Below, in pieces: positions 73-64,000 of a stretch of DNA of 64,000 nucleotides (its first letter is position 1; each line of letters opens with the position of its first letter). The stretch is from IMG/VR virus record IMGVR_UViG_3300042340_000194, positions 11,602-75,601 of that record; one strand, written 5' to 3'. Both the position numbers and the translations under genes were made by a program. The notes under the pieces were generated by a model. That model was not told the DNA's origin. It ran no database searches and saw nothing but the letters and a program-made list of their open reading frames with translations. This stretch comes from a virus.

Positions 73-467
73 TACCGCAAATTATAGTAAAGCGGACTTT
101 TTAACTGTAGTAGAGGTACTGTCGTGAGCCCTTGGCGGTGATGTACGGCTAGCAATAACTTATCAGGAACTACAACCCCAATGCCGAAAGACACTGGAGT
201 TAGTAATGGGACTAGAGACCATAGCTCTTCATCTACAGCGGCTTTAATCGCAATGAGCTGGAACTCTTCGTATAGATCAGTCCAGCGGCGTTCTCGGGCC
301 AAATTCTCCCATCGGGGGTCGATCTCGGGGGGATCCCTCCCGATCTCCTCCATGATGATCTGGGCCATCCTCAGGCAGCAACAGGCTTCACCGTTGCGGG
401 GGTCGGCACCAATGCGGTGAGGTAGTCCTAGCCAGGGGTGCCAGCCGGTGTAACTCGGAGAAGTCAT
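72..467 (-). CDS. NlpC/P60-like tail assembly protein (lambda gpK-like)
   Basis: WLGLPHRIGADPRNGEACCCL resembles the NlpC/P60 N-terminal motif; position downstream of tape measure. Confidence 0.55.
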   Translation of the reverse strand: MTSPSYTGWHPWLGLPHRIGADPRNGEACCCLRMAQIIMEEIGRDPPEIDPRWENLARERRWTDLYEEFQLIAIKAAVDEELWSLVPLLTPVSFGIGVVVPDKLLLAVHHRQGLTTVPLLQLKSPLYYNLR

Positions 468-488
468 GAATCAGTCTAAGGCTCTAGC

Positions 489-974
489 TTAGGACGACAA
501 AATATTACCAGTTGGGGGTAGATTACCCACGCGGTAGGACGATAGAACACCTTTAGGTACTTGTTGTACAACAGCATCAAAGGGGTTACGGAGATTTATT
601 GAACACTTTTGATCATTCTGGGGACCTCCGCTACAAGCCCATATCTGTGTTAATGCTGTGGTGCCTTCGGTGGGCTCTACACCTTCGGCGGTAGTGATTA
701 TTACAGTTTGTATTTCTACTAACCAACCAGATAGGATGGCTTCGGTAAATAAAGATACTGTTAGCTCGTTAGGTACAGTAACTAATCCGCCGGATGATGT
801 GGCACCACCTCGTTTGGATGATGATCCTGAAACCCCAAAGGGGGCGAATGTGTAGTAAGTACCTTCATACAGTCTGGCTTTGTTGATAAAATAATTTTGA
901 AATGCTCTAGCCGGGATATAGTTGCCAGCTTTATCCACGAAGCGTATGTATTCAGCAAAACTGGATCTACGCAT
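489..974 (-). CDS. minor tail/tail tip protein
   Basis: 161 aa, immediately downstream of tape measure; call is by synteny. Confidence 0.5.
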   Translation of the reverse strand: MRRSSFAEYIRFVDKAGNYIPARAFQNYFINKARLYEGTYYTFAPFGVSGSSSKRGGATSSGGLVTVPNELTVSLFTEAILSGWLVEIQTVIITTAEGVEPTEGTTALTQIWACSGGPQNDQKCSINLRNPFDAVVQQVPKGVLSSYRVGNLPPTGNILSS

Positions 975-3900
975 TAGGTTAGACCTAGGGCTCTGCGGAC
1001 ATTGGGGTCGAGCTGCATACCACTATAGGCAAGGTCGCGCCCCTGGTTGGCGGCTTCTTGCACGCCCTGCCGGAACTCCTTCACGGTGACATACTCGACA
1101 CCATTGATTGGCTGCGGTTCGTAGCGGATGTCTATGGCACCTCCGGGCAGGGACATCGGCCTCGGGGGAGCGGGGGGAGCCAGTGGGGTCAGGGCCGCAC
1201 GGGTGTTGCTGAACATCCCAGCGGTGGCGTCGGCAGGCAGGATCGAGCCGGGGCCCGAGGGGCTGAATAGTTCAGGGCCCCGTTCACCGACGATGTAGGA
1301 ACTGGAGGGGAGGACGGGGCCGCCAGAAGCGCGGAAGCCTCCGAAGGTCTTGCCGAAGATGCCCAGCCCGCCGCCACCGAGCAGCCCCCCGAACCCGCCA
1401 AAAACACCACCCAGGCCCGCGAGGACATTCTGGGTGCCACCTTTGCCGATCTGGGAAAGGCCACCGAAGATAGTAGCCGCACCGGTCGCGAGAGTAACCA
1501 TCCCCCCGAGTACGGTCTGCAGACCAGTTGCTGCTTGGGTGGTAGCGGGGGCGAAGTCTTTGATAGTGTCGCCCAGGCCGGTTAGATCCGTATTGAGGGT
1601 TGTGATTGTAGAGCCTGCGCTCGTGGGGGCGAAGGCGTCGAAATAGCCGGCCTCGGGGGAGAAGCCTTTAGGGTCTAGGCCACCGAAGGTGGAGTTTGGT
1701 CCGGGGACAATGTTGTTTGTAGGATTTGCTGCAATCGCCAAAAGTGCTGCGGTATTCTCACGGGTAGCTATAGTGTTGTCTACTGTAGGGTTGGAAACAT
1801 CAGCACCAAAGAACTTAGCAAACATTTTGGTCATATTGTCTTCCATCGGCTTTAAGGACATATCCATAAACTGCTCCATGACACGCTCAGTCAGAGATTG
1901 ACTAAAGGAGCTGGTAGCTTCTTTTATATCACCTCCAGATATAATAGATTTGAATACACTACGGAACCCTCCGCTAAATTCTTTGGCTAGCTCAGTACCT
2001 TTAGCCCAAGCCTCATTTTGTTTTTTCAGGGCTTTATCAAGAATAGCCAGTTCTAATGCAGCGGCGCGGGTAGCTGCAGCAAAAGCTGCAATCTCTTTCT
2101 CTACTTGACTATCAGACATACCTGGATTATTTTTCTTATAGTCCAAGCGATAGGTGGCTATGGATTCTTCTGCGCTATTAAGCCGTTGCCCTTGAAGATC
2201 GTCTGGGTTTATACGAAGCCCTCTGAGACGGCCAGCTATAGAGATCTTTGCTTTTTCTATGTTATACCCAATATCGCGCACATCAGCTTGCACTTTTTCT
2301 ATGCGAGTAGTTTCAGACGTAACAGCAAGAATTTCTTGACGTGTCTTTAAGTTAGTTCTTAGTATTTTTTCTTGCTCCGCGTAATAAGTATTTGTCTTTT
2401 TAATAAGTTCAGCTTTTTGTGTTTCAGTTAACACACCTCCTTCTGCAGTACGTTTTTCGTTTATAGATAAAAGTGTGTCTTTTCTGACTTTTTCCAGAGC
2501 TACTAGTTTCTGAGCATTATCAATAGTTAAGTCTAGCTCTTTAGGGTTATAGACTTGACTAGCAGCTTTTTTAATATTTTCTAGTGCAATCTTAGCATTA
2601 TTGAGTTCTATTGTGTACTGTTCAGTGCTTTGTATAGGCAGTGCATTTTTTAGGATTGCCTCAAACGCATCTTTTGTTTCAGCTTTGATTAACTGTGCTT
2701 TAAGGTCTTCTATTTTACCCATTTGAGCTTCCAAGCTTCTAGTGATCTTCTCCTGCTCGGAAGCTTGAGTATTCTGTATTTTAGCTAAATCTGGTATTAC
2801 CGGGGCGGTAGGGGGTGCAAGGTTTTGCTTTGCCGAGGGAGTGTCTCTGACTTTCCCATCAGTCCCTACCCACGCCTGGCCGTTCCAAGTGACGGGCTTG
2901 CCATTGAGGGTACTTTTTTCGCCAGGAGCCCTCCCACTGACCATGGTTGGCCCCATGCTTGTCCCTGTGGCTGTAGAACTGGCTAATCCATGTAAGAATT
3001 GATTCCCAGTAGTAAGGGATTGAGCGACATAACCCCCACCTCCATCTGTCCACCTCGGGGCACTAGCAGGCATTGGGATCAATGTCCCTGCTGGTAACGA
3101 TATGTCAATAGCATTACGACTTTGTCCGGGTCTACGATTTCTTGTTGAATCGTGAGCACCTTGTTCAACGGCTAACCGCCTCCTTAGTTCCCGTTGATCA
3201 GTAAGATTTAGTATGTTTTTATTACCGGGCTCTAGTTTAGCAAGATTCGGTAGTTCCATGTACTCTACCCCTGACTTTTGCAGGGATAAGACTATGGCTA
3301 GTGCTTCCTCAATTACTTTCTGCTTGTTAGGTCCGCGTATATCAAGATGGGGTCCAGAAGAATTACCGGAAGATCCAACGCGGAAGCCAGAACTGACACC
3401 TGGGGCGGTCATTGGACTAGCCCCACCACCTGTAGAATTTCCGGTTTCTCTGGCTTTCTGCTCCAACGCAGCCTGCTTCACTCTGTAATCTGAGACTTGC
3501 TTCTCGTAATCTCCGATTTTTAGACGTAAAGCTGCGATGTTCTTCTCCGTCTCATAACGATAATCAGCTATAGATTTCTCCATGCTATTGATTTCGATCT
3601 GCATCTGCCGGCGATTATCTTCAATCGTTTTCTCTCCCCTCATCTTAGTTGCAAGATATTCGTTAATACCTTGAGTTACACTGCGGCGCACCCCTTCTTG
3701 GCCTTCTAAGAGTTTGGTGTTAAGCCGCTCCGCAGCTTTAATTCTAATGTCACCCTCTAAGCTGATAATATTTGCAGTCTTTTGTAACGCCTGTTGACGC
3801 AGTTGGAACATATTATTCTCGTGTGCGCGTTCAAGGTCGCGTAATTGTTTACTAATATCAATTTTCTTTTGGCTAAGGATTTGGATGTTAGACTCTTGCT

Positions 3901-6454
3901 GTTCTAAATCTTTTTGATTAGCGATACGAGTCTGCTCTGCTTCTAGCTTGCCTTTCTCTTCTACAAGCTCTTTCATTTTCTCCGCCTGCATCGTTGTCCA
4001 GTCTGCATTAGGAGTAAAAGAGTTTAGAATAGCCATGCCTAACTCTTGCCAGGAGTTAACACCTCTAGTGGCTATGTCATAGTTAAGATCATTTATGGCT
4101 TTGCTAGTTTCTTGGATTTTCTTTGTTAATTCATCCCATCTGCCATTTACCGTAGCCTCATCCAGCTCTTTTGCTTTTTTAGCTGCGTATGAACTACTAT
4201 CTCCAACATCTTTATAGACAGTAGCTAAGCGCTTAAGCGCGAGTTCTGTTTTTGTCTGAGATGCAATTTCGTCATTTCGCCGCTGGAAGCGCCCAAAAAG
4301 GTCTACTGCAATGGTAACCGCTACTTGAACAAGTGTCATTATAGCTAAAAACTTGAAAAAGCCTAGTAGTTGAGTTCCTATAAAACCGCCTATTGAACTG
4401 CCTAGAGTTTTTATACCATTACCGACGTTCTCTGCTCCTTTCTTTGCCGCGTTCCCAACATCAACAGCACTGAATTTAAGTTTCTCTAAAGCAATAGCCA
4501 TTCTAATAGATTCTATTTCTACATCAGTAGCTGCTTGGTTTGCCCCTCGTCCTATATTTCTAAAAGTAGCAGCTACTTCAAGAATAATTATCTGCAGTTT
4601 AGCAAATTGTGGGAATATCCTTGCAAAAAACGAGGATATGCTAATCAACACTGTGCTTATAGTTTGAGATACTAAAGCTCCTATCCTGATCGCAGTGGCT
4701 ATTACTAAAGTCCCTAACTCTAGTATTTTAGTAAGCGTAAATCCAAGTCCTTGGGCTATAGCTGCTATAGCTGAACTGACCCAAGTGCCAACTTTTGCTA
4801 GACCTGCCCCTATGGCTGCTATAACACTGTCAAACCCTCGCTTAAAGGCTACAAGACTCTGGATTACTGATGGGACAGTCATCCCAATTCTAATCATACC
4901 ATTTACACCTATCTTTTCCAGTACCGCGAACTGTGCGGTTAGCTGACTAAGATACTGAAATAAGGGCTGTTCTATTAGCTTCCCATAAAGAGTTAGCAGC
5001 GTAGAAACTGCAGGAATTACTGTGGCGTTAAGTACAGTAGCCAAGTTAGTGAACGAGTTTACAAGAATTTTTAATTGCTCGAATCTAAAGCTTGCGAATC
5101 CTTCAAACAGTTCTTTCAGTCCTGAACCAACCATTACAAACGCCTTAATCATCTCATCTGTAAACTTGGCAATAGTAGGCCGTAGTTTCTCAATCTCTTG
5201 TTGAACTCGCAGAAACAAATCCGTTGTAGCTTTATTAACATCATCGAATACCCTCTTTTGCGAGTTGTCATCGAATTTCTGCAGGCTCGGGGCGGCCATT
5301 GCTCCCCCGACCAGCCCTTGACCAAGGGCGGCCCCAGCTCGGCCCAGACCATCTGCGATCTGCATAGTCGGTTTGACGACCAGAGACATGCGCCGGTAGA
5401 CCTCCCCCAGGCCATCGAGCAAGGGCTGCAACATGGGTGCCCCGAGTGCGCGGCCCATTTCCTGCTGGATTTCTTGGATGTTGGAGGTGATCCCAGCAAA
5501 GCCCTGCGCTTGAATCTTTTGGCCGGCGGTGAACGCCGCTAGTTTCTTTGTAATAAACTCTACTAAATCTCCTGTCTGCTTCGCTTTTTGGATGTCTTTG
5601 TTTGTAATTCCTAGGGAACGGGCTAGGATTGAGTTGTTGTCAATGTCCCCACGGAGCATCGAGCCGACTTCTTGGACTGCTAGTCCAGGATCACTCATGC
5701 CAATAGTCCCTAGAGCTGCGCTAAAGCTAAGGGCGAGTTTTTTAGCATCTTCGATTGAACCGCCCACCTGGCCAATCTGGCTAGATACTGTGCCGAATAC
5801 TTGAATAATTGCTTCAGAGGTGGTCCCTGCTATGTTTAGTGATTCTCTACGAATATCTTCAATAGCTTTTTGAATAGGCCCTTTGAGCGCAAGCACGCTG
5901 TCTAACGGATTAGTTAGCTCAACCCCATTCCGAAGAACCTTATTTGTGGCAGCTATGGTAGTCTGAGTTTGCAGCATTACTTGCTGTAATCTGACTTCTC
6001 TACCTATGGTTTCCGCGAACATCCCGCCGTAAGCGGATTTTAATATGTTGACACTTTGAGTAATACCGAATATAGTAAAGCCTAGGCGGGCTAGACTACT
6101 AATAAGAGTGTCAGATGCTAATAATGCTCCTTGGAGACTAACTGCTAAGGTTTTGCCTGGAGTAGCCTGGCTGAGCAAAAGCGCGGCTTTTGCGGTTGTT
6201 CTAAAAGTGTTCCCTAGAGATATCCCAATGGATTCAATATCCATCAGAGCCGGAACTACGTTCCTGGCGATGCCGTAGGTTATTTGTAGAGCTTTACCTA
6301 CATCTTGGATACCCTTGACTGTTTCGCTTAAACTCGGAAACTGAATATTAACTTTAATCGGGGTTTGTAAATTTTTTAACTTTCTATCTATACTATCAAT
6401 ATCCTTATGCGTTGCGCTGGATTCACTCTCGATTCTAATTGTATAATCAGCCAC
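974..6454 (-). CDS. tail tape measure protein with internal M23-peptidase-like segment
   Basis: 1826 aa, helical/coiled-coil, hydrophobic central region; C-terminal GFRASGGPV..YIVGERGPELF motif typical of tape measure proteins; follows the tail chaperones. Confidence 0.9.
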   Translation of the reverse strand: MADYTIRIESESSATHKDIDSIDRKLKNLQTPIKVNIQFPSLSETVKGIQDVGKALQITYGIARNVVPALMDIESIGISLGNTFRTTAKAALLLSQATPGKTLAVSLQGALLASDTLISSLARLGFTIFGITQSVNILKSAYGGMFAETIGREVRLQQVMLQTQTTIAATNKVLRNGVELTNPLDSVLALKGPIQKAIEDIRRESLNIAGTTSEAIIQVFGTVSSQIGQVGGSIEDAKKLALSFSAALGTIGMSDPGLAVQEVGSMLRGDIDNNSILARSLGITNKDIQKAKQTGDLVEFITKKLAAFTAGQKIQAQGFAGITSNIQEIQQEMGRALGAPMLQPLLDGLGEVYRRMSLVVKPTMQIADGLGRAGAALGQGLVGGAMAAPSLQKFDDNSQKRVFDDVNKATTDLFLRVQQEIEKLRPTIAKFTDEMIKAFVMVGSGLKELFEGFASFRFEQLKILVNSFTNLATVLNATVIPAVSTLLTLYGKLIEQPLFQYLSQLTAQFAVLEKIGVNGMIRIGMTVPSVIQSLVAFKRGFDSVIAAIGAGLAKVGTWVSSAIAAIAQGLGFTLTKILELGTLVIATAIRIGALVSQTISTVLISISSFFARIFPQFAKLQIIILEVAATFRNIGRGANQAATDVEIESIRMAIALEKLKFSAVDVGNAAKKGAENVGNGIKTLGSSIGGFIGTQLLGFFKFLAIMTLVQVAVTIAVDLFGRFQRRNDEIASQTKTELALKRLATVYKDVGDSSSYAAKKAKELDEATVNGRWDELTKKIQETSKAINDLNYDIATRGVNSWQELGMAILNSFTPNADWTTMQAEKMKELVEEKGKLEAEQTRIANQKDLEQQESNIQILSQKKIDISKQLRDLERAHENNMFQLRQQALQKTANIISLEGDIRIKAAERLNTKLLEGQEGVRRSVTQGINEYLATKMRGEKTIEDNRRQMQIEINSMEKSIADYRYETEKNIAALRLKIGDYEKQVSDYRVKQAALEQKARETGNSTGGGASPMTAPGVSSGFRVGSSGNSSGPHLDIRGPNKQKVIEEALAIVLSLQKSGVEYMELPNLAKLEPGNKNILNLTDQRELRRRLAVEQGAHDSTRNRRPGQSRNAIDISLPAGTLIPMPASAPRWTDGGGGYVAQSLTTGNQFLHGLASSTATGTSMGPTMVSGRAPGEKSTLNGKPVTWNGQAWVGTDGKVRDTPSAKQNLAPPTAPVIPDLAKIQNTQASEQEKITRSLEAQMGKIEDLKAQLIKAETKDAFEAILKNALPIQSTEQYTIELNNAKIALENIKKAASQVYNPKELDLTIDNAQKLVALEKVRKDTLLSINEKRTAEGGVLTETQKAELIKKTNTYYAEQEKILRTNLKTRQEILAVTSETTRIEKVQADVRDIGYNIEKAKISIAGRLRGLRINPDDLQGQRLNSAEESIATYRLDYKKNNPGMSDSQVEKEIAAFAAATRAAALELAILDKALKKQNEAWAKGTELAKEFSGGFRSVFKSIISGGDIKEATSSFSQSLTERVMEQFMDMSLKPMEDNMTKMFAKFFGADVSNPTVDNTIATRENTAALLAIAANPTNNIVPGPNSTFGGLDPKGFSPEAGYFDAFAPTSAGSTITTLNTDLTGLGDTIKDFAPATTQAATGLQTVLGGMVTLATGAATIFGGLSQIGKGGTQNVLAGLGGVFGGFGGLLGGGGLGIFGKTFGGFRASGGPVLPSSSYIVGERGPELFSPSGPGSILPADATAGMFSNTRAALTPLAPPAPPRPMSLPGGAIDIRYEPQPINGVEYVTVKEFRQGVQEAANQGRDLAYSGMQLDPNVRRALGLT

Positions 6455-6484
6455 GGCTTTTGTCGGTAGACCTCATAAACGAGT

Positions 6485-7006
6485 TTATCGCGGGGGCCCA
6501 GACGGGCTCGGGGGGCGGCTCATCCTCATATACACATGTACTGGGATGCGACGTTCTTGTACTAGGCGGTTTAACACATGTTTAGTATTTTCGGTTATCT
6601 GGAGTTTGCTTTCTTCGGCAGACACCCCGGAAGAACTAATGGCATCAGGGAAAGGCAAGAATAAATTAGGGTTCTTGAACTCTGTCTTCGCTTCAGGGTT
6701 AATGCTTCGCATGCCTATAAAATGAACGATACTAGCTAGCTGTGCCGTGGTAGCCGCTGCTATGTTAGCTTCTCGATGTTCTATCTCATCTAATTTCTTC
6801 ATCAAAGCTTCAATAAGCTTTATCGGGGTTCTGATAAAGCGGTGCGCAGGGAAGTCATCCGCTAAGCAGGAATTGCGAAAGCGGATGTATATTTCCCCCC
6901 AGTCGAACTCTGGCTCACTCCAGAGTTTCTCGTAAGAACTCAGGACGGCGTCTATGTCTAGGTCGCCTTCGGCTGTGCGCGGGTTTTCGTTGTTTTTTCG
7001 TTTCCC
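6485..7006 (-). CDS. tail assembly chaperone GT extension, reached by -1 frameshift
   Basis: The -1 frame is open from GGGAAAC (7006-7000) through the listed ORF 6485..6805. Confidence 0.8.
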   Translation of the reverse strand, partial: GKRKNNENPRTAEGDLDIDAVLSSYEKLWSEPEFDWGEIYIRFRNSCLADDFPAHRFIRTPIKLIEALMKKLDEIEHREANIAAATTAQLASIVHFIGMRSINPEAKTEFKNPNLFLPFPDAISSSGVSAEESKLQITENTKHVLNRLVQERRIPVHVYMRMSRPPSPSGPPR

Positions 7007-7509
7007 TCAGTACCTTCGGATTTAGGCCAGCCATCACGCTCCCATAGTACAAATTCCAGCATGCTAGTAAGGACTTTGATTGGGATAATATTTGTTTCCT
7101 CCAGTTCCCATTTTTCTGTCGATTCCCATTCGGCAGTGTCTGGATTCTTAACTTCTCCCCGGTATTGGAGTAACATTAGAGCATAGGCTTGTAGCTTAGC
7201 GGTCGTGTTTTCCTGTGAGTTATTAAGCTCTTCGATTTCGTCAATGTAATCAAAAACAATACTACTGTCGTCTGCAGTATTGAGGTTCTGTAGTAGATCG
7301 ACCGCTTCCTGATTAGTGATATTGCGAGCTATTGCGATTTTCTTAGCTAATCGCATCGAATCATAACTACCCTTCGAGTATTCTTTTTCGATAGCTAAAA
7401 TCTTAGTAGCTTCTGCTGGAGTTAAATCATTATGAATAGGGAACCTGAAAGGGCCGATTTCATGATAGGCGTCAGCCGGAAACAGTAGTCCTTTGTTGAA
7501 GTTGAGCAT
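6958..7509 (-). CDS. tail assembly chaperone (lambda gpG-like)
   Basis: Between major tail and tape measure; slippery heptamer near the 3' end; ATG 7509 (MLNFNKG) chosen as start, ORF track extends to 7539. Confidence 0.8.
   Translation of the reverse strand: MLNFNKGLLFPADAYHEIGPFRFPIHNDLTPAEATKILAIEKEYSKGSYDSMRLAKKIAIARNITNQEAVDLLQNLNTADDSSIVFDYIDEIEELNNSQENTTAKLQAYALMLLQYRGEVKNPDTAEWESTEKWELEETNIIPIKVLTSMLEFVLWERDGWPKSEGTEGNEKTTKTRAQPKAT
7000..7006 (-). promoter_or_regulatory. programmed -1 ribosomal frameshift site G GGA AAC
   Basis: X XXY YYZ heptamer in the correct phase (GAG GGA AAC), analogous to lambda GGGAAAG. Confidence 0.8.
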
Positions 7510-7741
7510 GATGGTGGGGAAGCTCAACCGACCAGGCAACCAAGGCGTTCTGGCAGTTGAGCCATTCGAGGGGTAGATCGACTACCACAGTAGCATCTTC
7601 AGAGGATAGGTGTACAGTCTGGTCTACACAATGAGGTTCTAAGTAGATAGCTCCGACCTTGACGGCCTCGGGGAGGATCTCGCAGTTAGCTGCGAAGATC
7701 GTGCAAATCGGATCTAGTAGCAAATCGACTGCTTTCGACAT
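7472..7741 (-). CDS. hypothetical protein in tail operon
   Basis: Likely start MSKAVDLLL at 7741, after a terminator hairpin. Confidence 0.55.
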   Translation of the reverse strand: MSKAVDLLLDPICTIFAANCEILPEAVKVGAIYLEPHCVDQTVHLSSEDATVVVDLPLEWLNCQNALVAWSVELPHHHAQLQQRTTVSG

Positions 7742-7756
7742 TGGTAGAGGGAAAGC

Positions 7757-7781
7757 AAAGGAAAACCCCCGAGGTCGGGGG
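7757..7781 (-). terminator. rho-independent terminator after major tail gene
   Basis: Minus strand CCCCCGA-CC-TCGGGGG-TTTTCCTTT. Confidence 0.6.
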
Positions 7782-7806
7782 CGGAGAAGCGGCGGGGCCG
7801 CCTCGA

Positions 7807-8835: not shown

Positions 8836-8846
8836 GACTTAAACCT

Positions 8847-9332
8847 TTAGAAAGGGCGGAGGATCGAATTGAGGGAAGTGCCGCGAAAACGGACGGTCAG
8901 AGCTTCCAGGGCCACGTCAGACCCGGAGTTATACCGAAGGTTAGCTGTGGGAAAAAGCCTTGCCATACGGGATTGGACTTCTTTAAGGGTCACTGTTTGT
9001 CTAGTGGTGTCGTCGAATCCGTAATTGGTGAAGATGACTTTCCAGGTAGATACTAGAATTATCTGACCTATACCTGGGGTAACGCTTTGTTCGGGGACTT
9101 CCTCGATAATACATTGAATGCCGGAAGGTTTCCAGGACGACGGTACTTGATCTTTGCCTTCAGCAAAAATACATGGTATTTTCTGCCCAGTTTTTAGCGT
9201 GTAGTAGCCTGGCCACTGGCTGTCAGGTTTAAGCGTGATGTTGTCTGTTAAAAAATATTCTAACACAACCCTCTCTATCGGGTAACGTATGTCAGAGGGT
9301 TCGGGCACGTAAGTGCTGGTGGGTAGCGTCAT
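8847..9332 (-). CDS. tail terminator/completion protein (putative)
   Basis: Size and position before major tail. Confidence 0.5.
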   Translation of the reverse strand: MTLPTSTYVPEPSDIRYPIERVVLEYFLTDNITLKPDSQWPGYYTLKTGQKIPCIFAEGKDQVPSSWKPSGIQCIIEEVPEQSVTPGIGQIILVSTWKVIFTNYGFDDTTRQTVTLKEVQSRMARLFPTANLRYNSGSDVALEALTVRFRGTSLNSILRPF

Positions 9333-55217: not shown

Positions 55218-55288
55218 GCAGATCGGCCTAGGGCCCCGCAACATGGGCGCAGTAAGATGAAACGTGCGCGTGCGCGGGAACCATCGTC

Positions 55289-55317
55289 AGTCTAGCACCA
55301 ATCGGCCCCAGTGTCAA
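55289..55317 (-). promoter_or_regulatory. early sigma-70 promoter P1
   Basis: TTGACA-17 nt-TAGACT. Confidence 0.75.
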
Positions 55318-55417
55318 CCCCTTGGAGTCTCGCTGAGTCTCAGAGTGAGATTGACATGTATGCTATATCACACATACATGCTATATAAAAATGTATATAT
55401 ATGTATTGTGTAAGAAG

Positions 55418-56314: not shown

Positions 56315-56613
56315 TATGGTCGCTCTAGTTGATCGGGTTCAGAATAGAACTCATGATATACGACCACTTCCCCAGAGGTATCCTCAGGTTCTGAGCATAT
56401 TGTGTCAATCTGCGCGTGTATTAAAACACCAGGATGGAAATCTGCGACTCTAAGCTCTTCAGCTACCCACCATCCGCAGGTAATAGCCGAGCTTCCATCT
56501 TCATATCCATTTTTCTCGTAATCCATGACCGTCATCACCGGCCCACCGGCAAATCGGACACGATGTCCCCGTAAGAAGCCGGCAGGGTCTGGTTGCCAGA
56601 TACTAACGGTCAT
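56314..56613 (-). CDS. YodC/DUF2158-like small protein
   Basis: GHRVRFAGGPVMTV..CGWW. Confidence 0.6.
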   Translation of the reverse strand: MTVSIWQPDPAGFLRGHRVRFAGGPVMTVMDYEKNGYEDGSSAITCGWWVAEELRVADFHPGVLIHAQIDTICSEPEDTSGEVVVYHEFYSEPDQLERP

Positions 56614-57223
56614 ATTTTAGAACTGCAGAAGAGTCTGTGAGTTTAACATCGTAGCGGCAGTTGTGCAAAAACCTTTGTAGGTTATTTACCCATACATCCA
56701 TGTCCACCTCTGGCCCGTTATTGTCGCATTTAAGATCTGCGCAACTTGGAGTTAGCTCCATGGAGCTTTTACTTTCTGGTGGCAGGCGCTTAATAGCATC
56801 AACCCAGATAACATGATCAAATAACCTAGCGTTCCTACAGGCCACCAATTCGTCTAACCGTCGCATACCTACATACATATCAAAACCACGATCAAACATG
56901 GTTTTTACCGTTCGTGTTTTGTCGGGAGTATTATAGGCAGAGATCAAGTTTGCCCATGTTTCGCGATTATTAACTCTATCCGCAAACATGTCATCAAAAT
57001 TAGAGTAACGTCTTCGAAACCATTTATGCCAAACACGTCTTCGGCCCCATTGATGCCAAATACATTCCTGCCCGACAAAAACTGAAGAGGACATAAACGC
57101 GAGGCCCATTTTGTCTCTTATTTTCTCAGCAAGGGTGTCTTTGCCATGACGAGCATGACCGATGATCAGCAACTTAGGCTCTCTGTATTCGATGTTCACA
57201 GGGGAAAGAGTAGGCATTGTCAT
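56603..57223 (-). CDS. P-loop deoxynucleotide monophosphate kinase-like protein
   Basis: LLIIGHARHGKDT; YVGMR. Confidence 0.7.
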   Translation of the reverse strand: MTMPTLSPVNIEYREPKLLIIGHARHGKDTLAEKIRDKMGLAFMSSSVFVGQECIWHQWGRRRVWHKWFRRRYSNFDDMFADRVNNRETWANLISAYNTPDKTRTVKTMFDRGFDMYVGMRRLDELVACRNARLFDHVIWVDAIKRLPPESKSSMELTPSCADLKCDNNGPEVDMDVWVNNLQRFLHNCRYDVKLTDSSAVLKYDR

Positions 57224-57912
57224 TACTTTGAGTTTGCGTAACGGTTGCGGGCTTGGAAATGAATAAAGAGTTGTTTAAGCTCATCCGCCTCTAGCGTAAA
57301 TACCTGGGGAGCAGCGTCGGGAATGGCTAGGACGATGCGGGCTCGGGGGATGTATAACCCGTAATCCCTATAAACATACTCTGCCGCAGCTTTGTACGCG
57401 GCGACTTGTAGTTTATAATCGTAGAGTTTCTGCTTCCCTGCTACTGTGCTTTCATCAATGTATTTCTCTGCTGACTTCCAGTCACTTAAGCTTATCTCTC
57501 CTCGATCTTCTATTATGTAACCTAGATGATCTAAAGATCCAGCAAACCCATCAGGGTGCCAGACTGCGCCTTCCATTAGAGCAGTATGCTCAATCTTGAC
57601 TAAGAACTCTTTAATGCTGTTCCAGTACGGAGTCCGTAGCATGCAGAACTTAGGTTCCCCGCCTGTTAACAGAAACTGCTCTACGTTATTGTGTGTGCCT
57701 GTTCCCCTAAACCCGGCTACTTTTAGAATCTCATCAGCTTTTTCTTTACCTTTCCATTCCCTCCATTCATTGATACCAGTCATGTCTTTAGACTGTCCTA
57801 TTTTATTTGTAACACTTCCGGCCCACCCAAGCTCTGTATTATAGTGGCGTCCCCCTAGTGGATGATTATCATCGCGTTCCAGTGTGTGTTTAGGGAGTGT
57901 TAGGAAGCTCAT
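57223..57912 (-). CDS. PD-(D/E)XK exonuclease
   Basis: RGTGTH, FAGSLD, DWKS, LQVAAY. Confidence 0.85.
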   Translation of the reverse strand: MSFLTLPKHTLERDDNHPLGGRHYNTELGWAGSVTNKIGQSKDMTGINEWREWKGKEKADEILKVAGFRGTGTHNNVEQFLLTGGEPKFCMLRTPYWNSIKEFLVKIEHTALMEGAVWHPDGFAGSLDHLGYIIEDRGEISLSDWKSAEKYIDESTVAGKQKLYDYKLQVAAYKAAAEYVYRDYGLYIPRARIVLAIPDAAPQVFTLEADELKQLFIHFQARNRYANSK

Positions 57913-58154
57913 AAGTAAGTGACTCCCTCGATACGATGTAGCAGCTCGTCGGCGGTCGAATCTAAAACACGAGCACAGCCTAGGAGTAACTCCACGTCGA
58001 TGAACCTAGTAGCCTTACGAGCGCGAGATAACGCACCTCCGCTTATCTGAAGATCTGCTGCGAGTGCTTTGAGGGTAATGCCCTTGCGAGCGGCCAGAAA
58101 TTCGACGTTTCGCCCGAAAACTCGGAGGATCTGATCGGCGGTCGGGTGATCCAT
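57909..58154 (-). CDS. XRE-family HTH protein
   Basis: ITLKALAADLQISGGALSR. Confidence 0.7.
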   Translation of the reverse strand: MDHPTADQILRVFGRNVEFLAARKGITLKALAADLQISGGALSRARKATRFIDVELLLGCARVLDSTADELLHRIEGVTYL

Positions 58155-58185
58155 CTGAAACGGCGTCGTCGAGGATAGCTTACAT

Positions 58186-58212
58186 GAAAAAGGGGCAGGA
58201 AGGGCCTGCCCC
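58186..58212 (-). terminator. rho-independent terminator after SSB gene
   Basis: Minus strand GGGGCAGG-ccctt-CCTGCCCC-TTTTT. Confidence 0.7.
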
Positions 58213-58241
58213 GGTCGTTATTGCGAGAGTAATCGTTGGAA

Positions 58242-58937
58242 TCAGAGATCTTCTTCTTCTTCTTCTTCTTCTTCTTCTTCTTCTGCGGTCTCCTCTTCAT
58301 CGCCCGCGTCCTCTTCTTTAGACGCTTCGGGGTTAAAGGGGTCGCCGTTCTCAAATAGAACGGTTAGATCTGCACCACCTTTCATAAGGGCTTTAAATGC
58401 CGCGTCAATTTCTGCGGATACATCCTTGGGCGGCGAAGCGGTTAGAGAGTATTTGGTGAAGCCTTTCTCCACCTTCCGTGTGATCTTAATGTCGTATCCT
58501 TGCGGATCTCCGTAGTCTTCCTCATCAGCGATGAAAGCATGAAGCTGGCTGAGGATAGTAGACTGGTCAATGTTTAGTACGCGGATACGCTCCTTAAAGT
58601 AATCCCAGACGAAACCAGCTATAAATCTTTTGATCTCCGTAGGTCTGCCAGAATCCTTGTTAATCTGAATATTACTTGGGATGTCCTCACCCACTGGTTT
58701 CCGTGCCCAACGAATAGGGCGTGATTTACCGTCAACATCGAGCCAGGTACTATAGCCAGTAACTGCTGGACCGAGATAACGAAAACGATGAGGTTTACCT
58801 TCATCTAACTTGGACAAGCCGACAAAACTATCGTTCCCTTGAGTATCTTTAGCTACTTCTTCGATCTGTTCATCCGTGAGAAAGGCAGAAGTTGGTCGTT
58901 TGGCTTTAGTCGTAGCAGCGGCTTTGGTAGCGGGCAT
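58242..58937 (-). CDS. single-stranded DNA-binding protein (putative)
   Basis: VWDY..YGDPQGYDIKITR..TKY..GDPF; poly-Glu tail (TTC repeat 58251-58283). Confidence 0.7.
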   Translation of the reverse strand: MPATKAAATTKAKRPTSAFLTDEQIEEVAKDTQGNDSFVGLSKLDEGKPHRFRYLGPAVTGYSTWLDVDGKSRPIRWARKPVGEDIPSNIQINKDSGRPTEIKRFIAGFVWDYFKERIRVLNIDQSTILSQLHAFIADEEDYGDPQGYDIKITRKVEKGFTKYSLTASPPKDVSAEIDAAFKALMKGGADLTVLFENGDPFNPEASKEEDAGDEEETAEEEEEEEEEEEDL

Positions 58938-58992
58938 GGTGTTGAAAGGAAAGAGAGGAAAAGGGAAAGGAGCTGGTAACGGGAATTGCCCC

Positions 58993-59226
58993 TTAAGGGG
59001 CGGTGGGGATCGAGACAGCCTGCTGGTGGGCCCGGATGATCTGCTCCGCCACCTCCGAAGGGGAGGAATTACGGAGACTAGCCAGGGATGCTAGGTGACC
59101 ATGCGCCGCGTCCGTCAGATACAGATGGCGTTTCCTTTTGGGGACGCCGTATCGCCGGTAGTTGGTTTTGGCGGGTCCGCCTGCAGGCTCTGTCGATTCG
59201 CTCAATGGTAAGGCATGGAGGGACAT
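58993..59226 (-). CDS. ribbon-helix-helix DNA-binding protein
   Basis: RHLYLTD..SPSEVAEQIIR. Confidence 0.55.
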   Translation of the reverse strand: MSLHALPLSESTEPAGGPAKTNYRRYGVPKRKRHLYLTDAAHGHLASLASLRNSSPSEVAEQIIRAHQQAVSIPTAP

Positions 59227-59357
59227 AGGTCAACCTATCGCAGGGGTGGAGGCCGGGACGTGGGAGGCGGATGTCCACAAAATGCCTAGGTCAGGCAGGT
59301 ATGCCGTAAACTGGGGGCGGCGGCCCAGCGCCAGTAAAAAGGCCCACCCTTCCCGGA

Positions 59358-62117
59358 GTGAGCCTTGATGATGACCACTGGGAACTAGCCCACTCACGAT
59401 TTTACACCATGACGGTTGATCCAATCGGTGCTTCAGCACCGAAAGCTGTATCTGGCACACCCAAAGGTACTGCCCGTGAGATGTTTGATAAAAAAGTATT
59501 TCCTGATGATTGGGCGTTGATCCCAGTTGCGGGTAAAGACACGTTCCATAGAGGTTGGGCTAGTAAGAAAATAGAACATAAGGACATGTTGTCCGCATTG
59601 GTATCGGACTCTCGATACCGAGGTATTGGTGTAGTAACTGGTGCGTTATCCGGCGGATTGATTGCTTTAGATATTGATGGGCACGAAGCGGATACTAGGT
59701 ACAAAACGGTCTCGGGGGAGGAGTACCAGCCATTTGGGTGTGAAACCACTATGGCATGGACATCCGGTAAACCAGGACGTAGGCAGTTGCTGTGGAGAGT
59801 GCCAGAGGCAATGATTTCCCAACTGAACCATGTTATATCGTTGATCCTACTGGATGATGGCGTGTGGTGGAGCGGTAAAGGTCGTCCTAATGAAGACGAC
59901 ACTATGAATCGTGCTCCTAAAGAAGAGTTGGTGCTGAGATTCAATAAGTGCATGTCAGTATTGCCTGGTAGTCCTCATCCCGATACTAAGAAGCGATTTA
60001 GGTTTCTGCAATACAATAATGGTGTGCCAGAGGATGCTCCTACATGGGTGTTAGAAATACTGAAAGAGCGGGTTAAGCCTAGTGAATGGTTAGCTGAAGA
60101 CGATGTTCGTGAACTGCAGTCGGAAGTAGGTCGCACTCAAGTACCTCCGAGGCAATTAAGAGGTTGGTTCTTTAAGGAGGAAGTTCAGAAAAAGTTACAG
60201 CCTAGGTTGACTGAATTAGTGTTTAGACATTCAGTATTTGACCAGTATGGTTGGGAGACAAGAGGAGGTAGTAAACCGCAGTTGATGAATGGTTGTCCTT
60301 GGCACGACAGCAGTAGTGGCACGTCGTTTCAAGTTAATGAAGAGAACGGCTGTTGGGATTGTAAGAGCTGTAAGGTATATGGAGATCCTTTGGACTTTAT
60401 CCATAAGATAGAGACTAATGATATGTACGCACCGCGTCCTGTTGGTTCTGAATTGGAGCGATACATAAAACCTATTGCAGAGGCACTTGGATACAGATAC
60501 CCAGAAGATTTGCTGGTAGTGCAGAAGACTACTGATGTACCTAGAGAAGTTATATCAGGTATAGAACTACTGGTTAGGGCTGAGAAAATCATTAAAGAGG
60601 TTAGGGATCCTTCAGAGCAGTTTATTGCTTTAACCGATTTGGCGGAGAATACGGGGCGAATGCGCTTAACTCCTACAAAATTAAAGGAGTTGGTTACTCG
60701 GCATAAGCAATTTACTAAGAATGCAGAGATAGGTTTGTTAAGGGATAAAGACTGGAGAAAGGACGTTGCGCCAGAAGAACACATTATACCGGGTTTGATC
60801 CGGCGCCCGTCACAGATACTTCTACATGCTCGGGGCGGTGTTGGGAAGACTGAAACTGCTATAGCTCTAGCCAAAGCTATTGGTACTGGAGCGTGTATTA
60901 AGATTAGAGGGATCGACGTACAGTGTCGGCAGGGTAATGTTTTGTGGATCTCTAGTGACCAGAATAAGTCTCGGCTAGATGCTCAGCTAAGCGCCCAAGA
61001 CATTACAGAGGCTAATTCAGACTGGTTCCACTTTGTAGAAAACTGGAAAACTGACCTTCCGCGTGAATTAGCGGATATTATCAGAAAGGTAGAGCCGGTC
61101 ATTGTTGTCATTGACTCTCTCGCTTCATCGCAAGATGAAACGGGGGTTAAAGAGAATGAAGCTGAGTACGCAGCTCCTTTGTACGCCTTGTCTGTTAATA
61201 ACGGTGATATGAGTTCTGAGTTTGGGTTCCCCGCTTGTTCTCTGTTATGGATTCACCATAACACCAAAGATGGGACGAAGTTTAGAGGAACAGACCGTAT
61301 TAACAATGCGGTCGATGAGACATGGGAGTTACAGAATTTATCTGTTGAGCAAGAAGTTACTTTTGGTGTTAATTCCAGATTCTTATGTATCGGTAAATCT
61401 CGCTTTGATCGTAGTGGGGATCGAATGCTGATAAAAAGAGATGTAGAACTTAATTACAGCATTGAGGATCTCACTCCCCTACTTGAGCGGGAGGGGGTGA
61501 TGCGGAGCGGAGACATCAGCCCCAGGAGCCTTGTGCTGGCCGCTGTGACGGACTCGGGGGAAGAGGGGGCCACTCCCAAGGCCATCCGGGAATTTGTGCT
61601 CCACCGGATGGAGGGGGCCGGCCAGGAGGTGTTCCCGTCCCGCCAGGCCATCGGGAAGCACCTGGCGGCCTGGGAGAAGGCCGGGATGGTGGAGAAGGTC
61701 GGGATGGTCGCGGTGGAGGGGAGAGGGAGGCCCACTCTCCTCTTCAGAGTGCCTCGCGGGGAGAGATCGAAAGAGGGGGGTGCGAAATTCGATGTAGATG
61801 ACCAAAACACTTGGTGTGAGGGGCTTTTGGAATTTGCAACTATTTTGCAACCAAGGGGGTTAAAGGGGGGTGTGGTTGCAAAATCAGAGCTTCCCCCCGA
61901 GGCCGAAGAGGGTGACCTGGAAGGAAGCCCTGATTTTGCAACCGGAGGGGCTGCAGAAGGCGAAATAGAGGAGGTGGTTGCAAAATCAAACCCTGCCCCC
62001 GAGGGCGATTTGACCCTGTCAGGGACTTTGCAACCACCTCCTTCGGCCCACCCCCGCGAGGGCCTATCTGATTGGTTGGATGCGTTTGGTGGTCAGGTGA
62101 CTGGTTCGGAGCCTTAG
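59358..62117 (+). CDS. prim-pol / Zn-finger / AAA helicase replication protein
   Basis: ALDIDG, SVLPGSPHP, CPWHD..CKSC, ARGGVGKT, VIDSL, IHH; start may be 59409. Confidence 0.9.
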   Translation: MSLDDDHWELAHSRFYTMTVDPIGASAPKAVSGTPKGTAREMFDKKVFPDDWALIPVAGKDTFHRGWASKKIEHKDMLSALVSDSRYRGIGVVTGALSGGLIALDIDGHEADTRYKTVSGEEYQPFGCETTMAWTSGKPGRRQLLWRVPEAMISQLNHVISLILLDDGVWWSGKGRPNEDDTMNRAPKEELVLRFNKCMSVLPGSPHPDTKKRFRFLQYNNGVPEDAPTWVLEILKERVKPSEWLAEDDVRELQSEVGRTQVPPRQLRGWFFKEEVQKKLQPRLTELVFRHSVFDQYGWETRGGSKPQLMNGCPWHDSSSGTSFQVNEENGCWDCKSCKVYGDPLDFIHKIETNDMYAPRPVGSELERYIKPIAEALGYRYPEDLLVVQKTTDVPREVISGIELLVRAEKIIKEVRDPSEQFIALTDLAENTGRMRLTPTKLKELVTRHKQFTKNAEIGLLRDKDWRKDVAPEEHIIPGLIRRPSQILLHARGGVGKTETAIALAKAIGTGACIKIRGIDVQCRQGNVLWISSDQNKSRLDAQLSAQDITEANSDWFHFVENWKTDLPRELADIIRKVEPVIVVIDSLASSQDETGVKENEAEYAAPLYALSVNNGDMSSEFGFPACSLLWIHHNTKDGTKFRGTDRINNAVDETWELQNLSVEQEVTFGVNSRFLCIGKSRFDRSGDRMLIKRDVELNYSIEDLTPLLEREGVMRSGDISPRSLVLAAVTDSGEEGATPKAIREFVLHRMEGAGQEVFPSRQAIGKHLAAWEKAGMVEKVGMVAVEGRGRPTLLFRVPRGERSKEGGAKFDVDDQNTWCEGLLEFATILQPRGLKGGVVAKSELPPEAEEGDLEGSPDFATGGAAEGEIEEVVAKSNPAPEGDLTLSGTLQPPPSAHPREGLSDWLDAFGGQVTGSEP
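61832..62037. repeat. six TTTGCAAC repeats, direct and inverted (candidate origin iterons)
   Basis: Copies near 61833, 61844, 61875 (inverted), 61935, 61977 (inverted) and 62027. Confidence 0.7.
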
Positions 62118-62157: not shown

Positions 62158-62412
62158 ATGCTGATTAGTGATTTCAGCATTCCCCTAACCATGCCTGTAA
62201 TGAGTGCTAATTCCAAGGTAGTGCCTATGACAGTGTATGTTCGTCAGGATCAGAAAGATTATGTGGAGTCATTAAGTAATGGCCGCATTTATTCTATGAG
62301 TGACGTTGTTAGGGCAATGATTGACAATCACAAAGAAGCACAGGCTCGTTCAGTAGCTTTGTTTGACCAGATAGCTGCTGAATGTGCAACTTCATCAACA
62401 ACCGATTCTTAA
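62158..62412 (+). CDS. ribbon-helix-helix protein
   Basis: MTVYVRQDQ..SMSDVVRAMID. Confidence 0.6.
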   Translation: MLISDFSIPLTMPVMSANSKVVPMTVYVRQDQKDYVESLSNGRIYSMSDVVRAMIDNHKEAQARSVALFDQIAAECATSSTTDS

Positions 62413-63844
62413 ACCAGTGACTGCCACTCAAATCAGGGACACAACAATGGATCTAGCATTGACTAGGACTATGGAACGAGTTGCTAGTATCTTAGCTAGT
62501 GCTGGGTATCCATCGCTGACTGCAGATCAAGTTAAGATTATCACTGATATTATTGTTAAAGTTAATGAAGAGGGTAAACCTCTAGAAGCGAGTCTTAAAG
62601 GACCAGCAGGCACTGGGAAGACAATGCTATTAGTGGGACTGATCATTGCTTTAGACGTGATGAAGTATAATGTCGTAGTCACTAGCTTTACTCACAAAGC
62701 TTGTTCAGTTATTGCTACACACATGCAGACTCTAGAGCAGCATTTGAGGCATAATATTGTTCCGCTTACACTGCACAGCTTATTAAATTTGAAACCTGCG
62801 CGAGCAGAATATGGTAAGCCTGAGACATTTACTCAGACAAGAGCACCAGAGCTAGCCGCTGTTGATTTTGTCATTGTCGATGAGTGCTCAATGGTAGGTG
62901 CTGACTTGACTACGCACATACAAGCAGGTATTGTCGAGCAAGGTATTCCTATTCTGTATGCTGGGGATCCGGCTCAGTTAATGCCTGTTAATGAGAAGAG
63001 CCTGTCAACAACATTTAAGACTCCTACTAAGTACAAGTTAACGGAGATACTTCGTCATGATGGTGCGATATTGAATTTGGCTACTAAGATTCGAACTCTG
63101 CCTTATCTACCTCAAGTCGCTGCAGCTTCAGGCGGCGGTACTGATGTGATCGTGTACAAAAATGATGATGCTTTGGTAGCAGCGTGGTTAAATTCTTTAT
63201 TGGATAGTGACAAGGGAAATGATTCTACTGTGATGCTCACTTATATGAACAAGCATCGTAGAGAATTTAATAGACAGGCACGGGTTGTTTTAATGGGAGC
63301 TGATGCCCCTAGGTTCATTGAGGGTGATGTGTTGTTAGCACTATCACCTATAATTCAAGAGGAAAAGTTAATTTATAGCAATAATGAGGATGTTCATATT
63401 ATAGCACCTCCTGTGCTAATAGAAGATTACACTCCTGTGGATACTTTAGATTTCACTTGTGCTGCTTGGCAGATAAGATCTGATAAAGGAGCACTACTCT
63501 ATGTATTAGCAGACCAGGAAGCCATTGATAAATACGCTAAGTATCTTAAGGCTTTAGGCATGGAAATTGCCAAAGAAGGCAAAGCCGCTAAATCTGGTAC
63601 TCACCATGACTCACGCGCAGTCAAGCGCAGATGGGCTTCACAATATTTCCCGTTAAAGGCGAGCTTTGCTGATCTTGATTTTCGCTATTCGTTGACTGTC
63701 CATAAATCACAAGGCAGTACGTTTAGATACGTGTACGTTAACAGTGACTATCGTAAAGCACGGGATCAACAGAAGCAGTTGATGTATGTTGCTGTGACGA
63801 GAGCTTCACGGGAAGTTCATCACGTAGACACTACTGTTTCTTGA
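62384..63844 (+). CDS. SF1B (Dda/RecD-like) DNA helicase
   Basis: GPAGTGKT, IVDECSMV, GDPAQL, TVHKSQGST, YVAVTRA. Confidence 0.92.
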   Translation: MQLHQQPILKPVTATQIRDTTMDLALTRTMERVASILASAGYPSLTADQVKIITDIIVKVNEEGKPLEASLKGPAGTGKTMLLVGLIIALDVMKYNVVVTSFTHKACSVIATHMQTLEQHLRHNIVPLTLHSLLNLKPARAEYGKPETFTQTRAPELAAVDFVIVDECSMVGADLTTHIQAGIVEQGIPILYAGDPAQLMPVNEKSLSTTFKTPTKYKLTEILRHDGAILNLATKIRTLPYLPQVAAASGGGTDVIVYKNDDALVAAWLNSLLDSDKGNDSTVMLTYMNKHRREFNRQARVVLMGADAPRFIEGDVLLALSPIIQEEKLIYSNNEDVHIIAPPVLIEDYTPVDTLDFTCAAWQIRSDKGALLYVLADQEAIDKYAKYLKALGMEIAKEGKAAKSGTHHDSRAVKRRWASQYFPLKASFADLDFRYSLTVHKSQGSTFRYVYVNSDYRKARDQQKQLMYVAVTRASREVHHVDTTVS

Positions 63845-63853
63845 GGTGTAATC

Positions 63854-64000
63854 ATGTCTGGTAGTAATTTACGCTGGTTTATTTTTAGGTATTCCAGCAT
63901 TGTTGGTAAGATTGAACTTGCTTCTATCCAAGCGGTCTCGGGGGAGGCTGCTGAGAGAGAACTCCGAGAAATAGTTCCATATCCTAGAAATTTGACTCTG
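63854..64000 (+). CDS. partial hypothetical protein
   Basis: ATG at 63854, open to the window end. Confidence 0.4.
   Translation, partial: MSGSNLRWFIFRYSSIVGKIELASIQAVSGEAAERELREIVPYPRNLTL

Follow-up and report, generated by a model that had tools for sequence, protein, structure and literature searches.

On the plasmid RSF1010, iteron-bound RepC and the helicase RepA expose the ssiA and ssiB sites at oriV, which the AEP-like primase RepB' requires (PMC8567376). The PrimPol of phage NrS-1 requires an 8-nucleotide (nt) template word that occurs in only two copies, both central, in its genome (PMC7102993). In T7 gp4, a fused primase reads the lagging-strand template that is tracked by the helicase (PMC2910064). 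Zinc-binding domains of the T7 gp4 and Twinkle type recognise 5'-GTC-3' or 5'-(G/C)GGA-3' (PMC2910064, PMC5737085), and in both T7 and plant Twinkle the 3' bases of the site are 'cryptic', that is, read and not copied (PMC5737085). Here we describe an oriented word, CRNNCTCGGGG, that recurs throughout a phage genome encoding a primase-helicase. The window that we analyzed is a stretch of 64,000 nt, bases 11602-75601 of the single-contig phage genome IMGVR_UViG_3300042340_000194 (75,601 bp, 75.6 kb); coordinates are those of the window unless stated otherwise. We propose, with confidence that stands at an even balance, that the phage primase-helicase reads CRNNCTCGGGG on single-stranded DNA as a cis-acting signal for replication, most likely its primer-start template site.

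The original prediction, made from the letters of the window, had counted about 45 plus-strand and about a dozen minus-strand copies of CTCGGGG. We found 44 and 13, at the positions first given except for one that shifts from 61554 to 61553. Dinucleotide shuffles of the window gave an expectation of 9.25 +/- 3.0 copies for both strands together, against which the 57 observed copies represent a stronger enrichment than was first claimed. CTCGGGG is the top-ranking 7-mer of the whole genome (51 plus, 16 minus). This core belongs to a longer, sharply defined 11-nt word, CGNNCTCGGGG, with the pattern C-R-N-N-C-T-C-G-G-G-G. Aligning the 51 plus-strand copies placed a C at -4 in 49 of them and a G or A at -3 in 50; two free bases follow this C-R flank, then CTCGGGG, then a G in ~70% of copies. 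The C-R flank is identical in all 16 minus-strand copies. The extended form proposed earlier, GG[C/G], captured the true flank in part, and the real unit is the 11-nt word with its nine specified bases. The complete word matches 54 times in the window (41 plus, 13 minus) where 1.14 +/- 1.12 matches were expected from dinucleotide shuffles, and 48 plus and 16 minus copies are present genome-wide, with one-mismatch variants nearly absent. No conserved sequence was found outside its 11-12 positions in the whole-genome flank profile, so the word does not belong to any longer repeat or mobile element. The base composition around plus-strand sites shows mild G enrichment only, from -60 to +25, and none is seen around minus copies. 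A literature search on the 7-mer returned only noise, and we found no account of the word, or of replication in this phage lineage, in the searchable literature.

The copies are distributed along the window as follows.

320..63943, plus strand: array of CRNNCTCGGGG, 41 copies in the window (48 genome-wide), mean spacing ~1.5 kb
Plus strand, copy starts listed: 320, 1157, 1648, 5282, 6503, 7663, 9433, 9868, 13300, 13643, 15647, 16190, 17760, 18963
Plus strand, copy starts listed (continued): 19311, 20750, 21555, 22617, 24144, 24511, 25919, 26294, 27807, 29506, 30768, 31550, 32329, 35519
Plus strand, copy starts listed (continued): 37563, 38528, 39543, 41182, 43039, 45192, 48188, 50291, 55663, 57338, 59707, 60825, 61549, 63933
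1504..25522, minus strand: eleven copies across the half with the structural genes, roughly every 2-3 kb
Minus strand, copies in the window include: 1504, 5440, 7767, 9637, 13127, 17414, 21011, 23913, 25084, 25512, 61895, 61997 (the last two are the copies at the origin-like locus described below)
25523..61894, minus strand: domain of 36.4 kb with no minus-strand copy, holding the portal, terminase and early genes; largest gap 36,383 nt (P = 6e-4)

The majority orientation of the word never switches along the genome. Plus-strand copies are over-regular, with a coefficient of variation of their spacing of 0.63 compared with 0.98 for random placement (P about 1e-4); gaps range from 343 nt to 5.4 kb. 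This over-regular spacing is Okazaki-sized. Minus copies fill only one half of the circular map: they start in the primase-helicase gene (61895, 61997), continue to the right across the PolA block and the structural genes, and end at 25512, at about one per 3 kb. Potential minus-strand sites, defined as those where synonymous changes could spell the word, are realised at 0 of 19 positions in the 36.4-kb domain and at 15 of 57 in the other half (P = 0.016). We also considered whether minus copies are paired with nearby plus copies; the association was not significant (P = 0.17). The plus strand has G>C and T>A nearly throughout the genome, independent of gene orientation. As a separate observation, 50301-55663 is the only long interval (5.4 kb) that lacks both a plus copy and a one-mismatch variant, and it holds small early genes.

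We asked whether the word could be a by-product of coding or RNA constraints, such as Pro-Glu dipeptides, codon-pair bias or an mRNA signal, or of mutational bias. The mild G enrichment near sites would suit such an origin, as would the 23 of 36 antisense coding copies that read xxC-CCC-GAG (Pro-Glu). Nearly all genes in window 1-58,900 lie on the minus strand; the plus-strand genes are an island at 17,940-19,611 and a replication block that begins at 59,358 and runs on into the contig start. Shuffling synonymous codons within genes, which preserves every amino acid, left 15.4 +/- 2.4 plus-strand copies, ~9 of them the fixed intergenic ones, compared with 51 observed (z = 15), and 4.0 +/- 1.7 minus-strand copies compared with 16 observed (z = 7). 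Both the enrichment and the strand skew therefore persist under codon control. As first predicted, the copies occupy several reading frames and intergenic DNA: antisense coding copies divide 23, 11 and 2 among three frames and ~10 copies are intergenic, with the C-R flank at a fixed distance whatever the frame. Reversed-pattern controls are near zero. A claimed preference for gene tails did not hold up, as 17 of 64 sites are at gene boundaries or intergenic where 24.5% were expected (P = 0.40).

The most direct measure of selection came from synonymous sites. Of the 82 plus-strand positions able to spell the word synonymously, 40 do so (49%). Plus-strand genes, in which the word reads as sense, realise 47% of their potential sites, and minus-strand genes, in which it reads as antisense, realise 49%; density is likewise equal in genes of both orientations, in agreement with the earlier remark that the plus orientation is kept inside plus-strand genes. 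Minus-strand potential sites are realised at only 15 of 76 positions (P = 2e-4 relative to the plus strand). Because the realised fraction is the same in either gene orientation and lower on the minus strand, the strand rule is set by the DNA strand and not by transcription or translation. Among ten close relatives (mean divergence 4.1%), we observed 0 differences in 927 comparisons at the nine specified positions, while flanks differ by 3.0-4.75% and the two N positions of the word vary. The word is selected as DNA, not as coding sequence, and the codon shuffling and synonymous-site results rule out a coding or codon artefact; we give a by-product of coding, RNA or mutational constraints almost no credence. 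The cis-requirement shapes protein-coding sequence strongly, with half of all synonymous opportunities used.

The likeness of the word to Chi and to the FtsK-orienting polar sequences (KOPS), which had been raised in the original prediction, raises the possibility that the phage has accumulated a signal of its host, either for recombination (Chi-like, read by RecBCD/AddAB) or for translocation (KOPS-like, read by FtsK), as a means to protect or orient its DNA. Like Chi and KOPS, the word is G-rich, oriented and over-represented, and a one-way orientation would shield rolling-circle tails. We counted the word and its reversed control in five picocyanobacterial genomes and obtained 285 and 189, 233 and 221, 142 and 156, 173 and 157, and 215 and 195 copies, respectively. 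These host-type genomes, from which the phage's own host may differ, show no enrichment and no strand excess of the word, and for these five genomes we rejected a host signal because the word stays at the level of its reversed control. No FtsK/SpoIIIE-type translocase is among the annotated phage genes, and the word shows no switch of polarity of the kind that KOPS-type words undergo at a dif-like site. The word also changes with phage lineage and is present in origin hairpins (both described below), and plus-strand copies on a G/T-rich plus strand would be oriented opposite to what tail protection needs. With the word at background in host-type genomes, a host signal of the Chi or KOPS kind is disfavoured, and we regard it as very improbable.

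A relation to AvaI (CYCGRG), also suggested earlier, was rejected because the forms of that site are not treated alike: CTCGGG/CCCGAG occurs 79 times, CTCGGG being the commonest hexamer, and the palindromic forms CTCGAG and CCCGGG both have 0 copies. Palindromes are scarce more generally. Of 64 6-bp palindromes, 15 have zero copies in the whole genome and 14 more have 1-3, where ~18 each are expected; those with zero copies include CCCGGG, CTCGAG, GAGCTC, GAATTC, ATCGAT, GGTACC, GTCGAC and CCGCGG. None of the 2,016 non-palindromic hexamer pairs is absent from the genome. The avoidance of palindromes suggests heavy restriction pressure from the host. The cyanobacterial HIP1 octamer GCGATCGC is also absent from the genome.

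The gene to which the word is linked across the family lies in the plus-strand replication block.

59358..62117, plus strand: primase-helicase gene, 919 amino acids, with PrimPol (AEP) PF09250, CHC2 zinc ribbon PF01807 and RepA/DnaB-like RecA-fold helicase PF13481 domains; its C-terminal region overlaps the putative origin

The catalytic residues D105/D107, the zinc ligands C313/H316/C335/C338 and the Walker A segment G494-T498 are invariant in 13 family members, as are the DxD and sxH motifs. A structure predicted for the helicase domain from a 21-sequence alignment (pLDDT 80, pTM 0.80) is a RecA-fold ring-helicase module. Its nearest fold is RSF1010 RepA (target-normalised TM-score 0.63-0.64), followed by DnaB, RadA and KaiC, with no superfamily 3 (SF3) helicase among the listed fold matches. 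No sequence homolog of the whole primase-helicase was found in the PDB, a profile search gave only weak RecA-fold matches, and no described cultured phage in the GenBank phage set has this protein. A conserved C-terminal segment appears winged-helix-like by inspection. Homologs at 40-50% identity are named in Cyanobium, Synechococcus and Vulcanococcus genomes, which suggests freshwater picocyanobacteria as hosts. The phage itself was found, in part, in lake-water metagenomes (20 rows from 20 studies).

We examined the word across relatives of the phage, which include more than 80 related viral contigs. In relatives of higher GC whose portals are 62-71% identical, the density and strand bias of the word are unchanged; searches for portal relatives lacking the primase reached the same clade only. 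The complete genome of one such relative (G001, portal 67% identical) has 50 and 14 copies on the two strands, with 1 and 0 for the reversed-pattern control. About half of the sites that could be mapped between the two phages are orthologous and the others have turned over. Therefore, the sequence of the word and its density are both maintained. Across 77 IMG/VR loci (1.22 Mb) with primase-helicase homologs at 37-81% identity, we counted 732 primase-sense and 188 antisense copies, with controls of 20 and 7. Primase-sense copies outnumber antisense copies in 75 of the 77 loci. With the words masked, G exceeds C on the motif-rich strand at 77 of 77 loci, irrespective of gene direction. Complete genomes from a distant clade contain 72 and 24 copies (G011) and 48 and 11 copies (G012). 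In both, the origin cluster and a long upstream stretch free of minority-strand copies recur, and the confinement of minus copies to one half of the genome is repeated in G001, G011 and G012. Codon shuffling, synonymous-site saturation, zero polymorphism and conservation in the family all uphold the earlier idea of an oriented DNA-level signal about every 1.5 kb.

The form of the word follows the primase lineage to some degree. In the distant clade (L046-L121, 37-45% primase identity) the word is CRNNCTCGGKG, with G and T about equal at position 10, compared with 43 G to 1 in this phage. The preference at position 10 clusters on the primase tree, requiring 11 changes compared with 23.6 for shuffled labels, a difference to be read with the caveat that kin share labels. 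A strict G at position 10 recurs in at least three separate clades of the tree, including integrated elements of cultured picocyanobacteria.

The gene and the word also travel together outside the viral family. All loci with a primase-helicase homolog at 37-47% identity carry the word and have two or three antisense copies at the 3' end of the gene, and the word was not found at loci matching only the PrimPol domain at 33% or less. Integrated or episomal picocyanobacterial elements share with the phage essentially only the primase-helicase gene, and they carry the word too. Host-genome contigs of this kind (L020-L031) come from Cyanobium sp. CACIAM 14, Synechococcus sp. BO 8801 and CS-1329, Vulcanococcus limneticus LL and Cyanobium sp. 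CH-040. These contigs have a homologous primase-helicase, their own iterons and a dense local cluster of words (10 copies in 4.7 kb in L023), and they share no further gene with the phage except a DUF932 gene in three. The elements may be satellite-like or plasmid-like. Word, strand and primase family together give a simple signature by which these phages, and the satellite-like elements related to them, can be recognised in metagenomes.

The 3' end of the primase-helicase gene contains an origin-like locus.

61833..62065, no strand assigned: putative replication origin in the 3' end of the primase-helicase gene, with at least six GGTTGCAAAAT iterons as inverted pairs and two word copies
61895..61905, minus strand: origin word copy 1, CGGCCTCGGGG, between inverted arms 61874-61894 and 61923-61943; conserved in G001
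61997..62007, minus strand: origin word copy 2, CGCCCTCGGGG, between inverted arms 61969-61987 and 62024-62042

The iteron GGTTGCAAAAT has at least six copies at this locus and essentially none elsewhere in the genome. The inverted repeats that flank each origin word are 19-21 nt long and are built from this unit. Either strand of the 230-nt stretch is predicted to form a pair of long hairpins (z = -7.6 and -6.9), in which the word falls where loop meets stem. The two words are 102 nt apart, and the 102-nt doublet was found again in G001, L020 and G011. G001 has the same architecture with all arms built from GACACAAACC, and both words and their immediate neighbours are conserved. Homologs of other lineages use the units GAATAAATTC, CGTGAAACAAC, GTGTCAAAAACC and AACGAGCGACA, always around an unchanged word. 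In every lineage examined, the 3' end of the gene holds two or three opposite-strand words flanked by inverted iterons. An invariant element surrounded by iterons that differ among lineages, placed where an initiator gene ends, is classic origin anatomy, as in the Staphylococcus aureus pathogenicity islands (SaPI), P4, lambda and IncQ. From this sequence architecture, we conclude that the locus of iterons and words is probably the origin of replication. Just upstream, still within the primase-helicase gene, 61673-61708 is a tandem 18-nt duplication (GGAGAAGGCCGGGATGGT x2) that gives a repeated EKAGMV/EKVGMV peptide; it is also present in G001 (L015:3674-3707). The original prediction had neither the full 11-nt extent of the word nor its copies at the origin, and it did not include the division into two domains or the association with the primase-helicase.

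A word at the junction of a hairpin loop and stem is reminiscent of rolling-circle origins. The copies could be strand-specific nick sites for a phage nickase in virion or replicating DNA, as in T5 and some Pseudomonas phages, in which case those at the origin, in hairpin loops, would be nicked for rolling-circle replication. The sharp definition of the word and its bias to one strand would suit nick sites, and the monotonic strand skew agrees with one-way or rolling-circle replication. We found no HUH, relaxase or nickase gene, and none common to the motif-bearing elements; no nicking endonuclease was recognised by Pfam or PHROGs among ~40 proteins scanned, a set that omits many small genes. 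The ~64 sites are also far more than known nicked phages carry. We consider nick sites improbable.

We favor a model in which the word is read on single-stranded DNA. What the sequences show directly is the word itself, its selection as DNA, the strand rule, the family-wide link to the gene and the origin-like locus, and the absence of the word as a host-wide signal. The primase-helicase would be the reader, and priming its mode of reading. The strand that is single-stranded longest turns G- and T-rich, which here is the plus strand, and GC and AT skew would thus set the direction of replication. Helicases of the RepA/DnaB class move 5' to 3' on the lagging-strand template, and the predicted fold class of the phage helicase suggests the same polarity. 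Iteron binding and hairpin extrusion at the origin would expose the two minus-strand words, and leading-strand synthesis would run rightwards from primers made on them. The helicase part, of RepA/DnaB type, would travel 5' to 3' on the plus strand as lagging-strand template or displaced strand, and the fused primase would meet a plus-strand word every ~1.5 kb and begin the next lagging-strand fragment there. In a strand-displacement mode, plus-strand words would start synthesis of the complementary strand. Non-origin minus copies would begin rightward synthesis; as a guess, they may serve re-priming where late genes are transcribed head-on to the fork. We speculate, by analogy with T7 and plant Twinkle, that the GGGG end may be the cryptic part, recognised and left uncopied. 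A need of the primase for so long and rare a word would explain why the genome evolved and keeps ~50 evenly spread plus-strand copies. Of packaging, ejection, recombination, replication and protective binding, the five functions first offered for the motif, the evidence singles out replication.

Alternatively, the word could be a duplex-DNA site for the replication machinery or an associated protein, serving not in priming but in dispersed helicase loading at secondary origins, as polar fork barriers that impose one-way replication, or in organising or condensing the replicating genome. A duplex site would share the association with the primase-helicase and the origin. It would also fit the 102-nt spacing of the origin copies, which is ~ten helical turns, and the 11-bp bipartite form (CR, a gap of 2, CTCGGGG), which is typical of winged-helix or helix-turn-helix recognition and could be matched by the winged-helix-like segment noted above. 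The lack of an accessibility signal in single-stranded folds points the same way. However, a duplex site has no intrinsic strand. The strict strand rule, linked to skew in 77 of 77 loci and to the strand that a RepA/DnaB-type helicase would follow, sits more naturally with reading of single strands. Half the genome would in addition contain non-permissive barriers in the form of the opposite-strand copies. We judge a duplex site unlikely, though more credible than nick sites.

Several observations weigh against priming by the primase-helicase. Primases known to act at each Okazaki fragment recognise 3-5 nt rather than 11. All 14 minus copies outside the origin lie in the half downstream of it, which a simple leading/lagging model does not predict, and transcription of most genes would meet the fork head-on. 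The word is no more accessible as a single strand than it is in shuffled flanks (P = 0.87), and the 102-nt origin spacing fits duplex binding on one helix face equally well. A spacing floor of ~300 nt, seen in this phage and G001, is absent in the distant clade. Within the viral family, PolA, an exonuclease, a 231-amino-acid neighbour and a sigma factor co-occur with the word too. Because of this, it is the integrated elements and the position of the origin that tie the word to the primase-helicase; word copies in the integrated elements cluster within a few kb of the primase-helicase gene. Should priming prove wrong, a sharply defined, strand-specific, family-wide word linked to an origin would still be a cis signal not described before, and the primase-helicase its obvious candidate reader.

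A broader proposition, which we hold at somewhat less than even confidence, is that a family of freshwater cyanophages and integrated picocyanobacterial elements uses a primase that starts only at an 11-nt word, and that their genomes carry a selected 'priming code' co-evolving with it. This code would consist of ~50 lagging-template copies, a sparser opposite-strand set downstream of the origin, and the copies in the origin hairpins. If so, it would be the first case in which the starts of Okazaki fragments are hard-wired in the genome sequence, and the position, strand and direction of each discontinuous DNA start could be read from the phage sequence. Replication mode, fork direction and Okazaki-fragment size would become testable in uncultured, widespread lake phages. 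Long primase words such as those of NrS-1 and RepB' would be extended from an origin pair to a genome-wide code under selection, and a sequence-specific PrimPol-helicase could be a possible tool.

The replication block continues past the primase-helicase gene.

62384..63844, plus strand: Dda/RecD-like superfamily 1 helicase, in the replication block that continues to PolA past the end of the window

PolA lies at genome positions 50-2014, and the Dda/RecD-like helicase gene is shared by only 5 of 76 motif-bearing relatives. About 85% of the coding sequence in window 1-58900 is head-on to the fork direction that skew and motif strand suggest, which is unusual and is the same in G001. The phage encodes a sigma factor (phrog_351, E = 2e-51) and a ThyX thymidylate synthase, which are minus-strand genes among 55418-56314 and 37926-38699. 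The head module includes minus-strand genes at 16836-17885 and 15489-16799 for a protein-kinase-like protein and an adjoining DUF2213 protein.

We compared the phage system to the described systems introduced above and to others. RSF1010 and NrS-1 provide the closest precedents, and RSF1010 and other IncQ plasmids agree with the phage in several respects. As here, a RepA-type RecA-fold hexameric helicase, the type to which the phage domain is matched by fold, works with an AEP-class primase; iterons at the origin, together with sites that form hairpins, display a long and specific sequence to the primase beside the replication genes; and sites on opposite strands set defined start directions. 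The phage differs in carrying primase and helicase in one polypeptide, of predicted activity, with an added CHC2 zinc ribbon. Its word has 11 nt where the RSF1010 site has 40, and it is present in ~64 copies over 75.6 kb with a 3:1 strand bias, whereas the RSF1010 site occurs once per strand in oriV. We found no sequence similarity to RepB' or ssi.

In NrS-1, as in this phage, a PrimPol is fused to a helicase domain, de novo synthesis needs an unusually long template word, and copies are present on both strands at the presumed origin. NrS-1 has its two central copies in place of the 48 and 16 that are evenly spaced genome-wide here, and there is no detectable sequence homology between the two systems. 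The helicase of NrS-1 is probably also of a different class. T7 gp4 and Twinkle-type enzymes likewise fuse a primase to a 5'-to-3' ring helicase and implicate a CHC2 zinc ribbon in template recognition, but their catalytic domain is TOPRIM rather than AEP/PrimPol, and they specify 3-5 bases where nine are specified here. In length the word is nearer to the sites of NrS-1 (8 nt) and RepB' (ssi, 40 nt). Nine specified bases cannot arise by chance at useful density, and the word must therefore be kept by selection.

The Pri-Rep systems of SaPI and other phage-inducible chromosomal islands (PICI) and of P4 resemble the phage in having an origin at or just past the 3' end of the primase-helicase gene, with lineage-specific iterons whose divergence follows that of the element. 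Their origins lack an invariant family-wide word and their genomes lack dispersed copies of one. SaPI/PICI and P4 helicases belong to SF3. T5 and some Pseudomonas phages have strand-specific nick sites, in which a defined sequence recurs on one strand; these sites are far fewer, and they require a nicking enzyme, of which none is evident here. Chi, KOPS and the SpoIIIE recognition sequences (SRS) are, like the word, short, G-rich and over-represented, with an orientation that follows the replication strand. They are host-chromosome signals read by host enzymes, whereas the word belongs to mobile elements that carry one primase-helicase family and is part of their origin. The word thus combines two known kinds of element, the sequence-specific primase or ssi site and the oriented genome word. 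It departs from the RSF1010 and NrS-1 precedents in scale and distribution: one strand of the 75-kb genome holds about one copy every 1.5 kb, kept there in spite of coding constraints.

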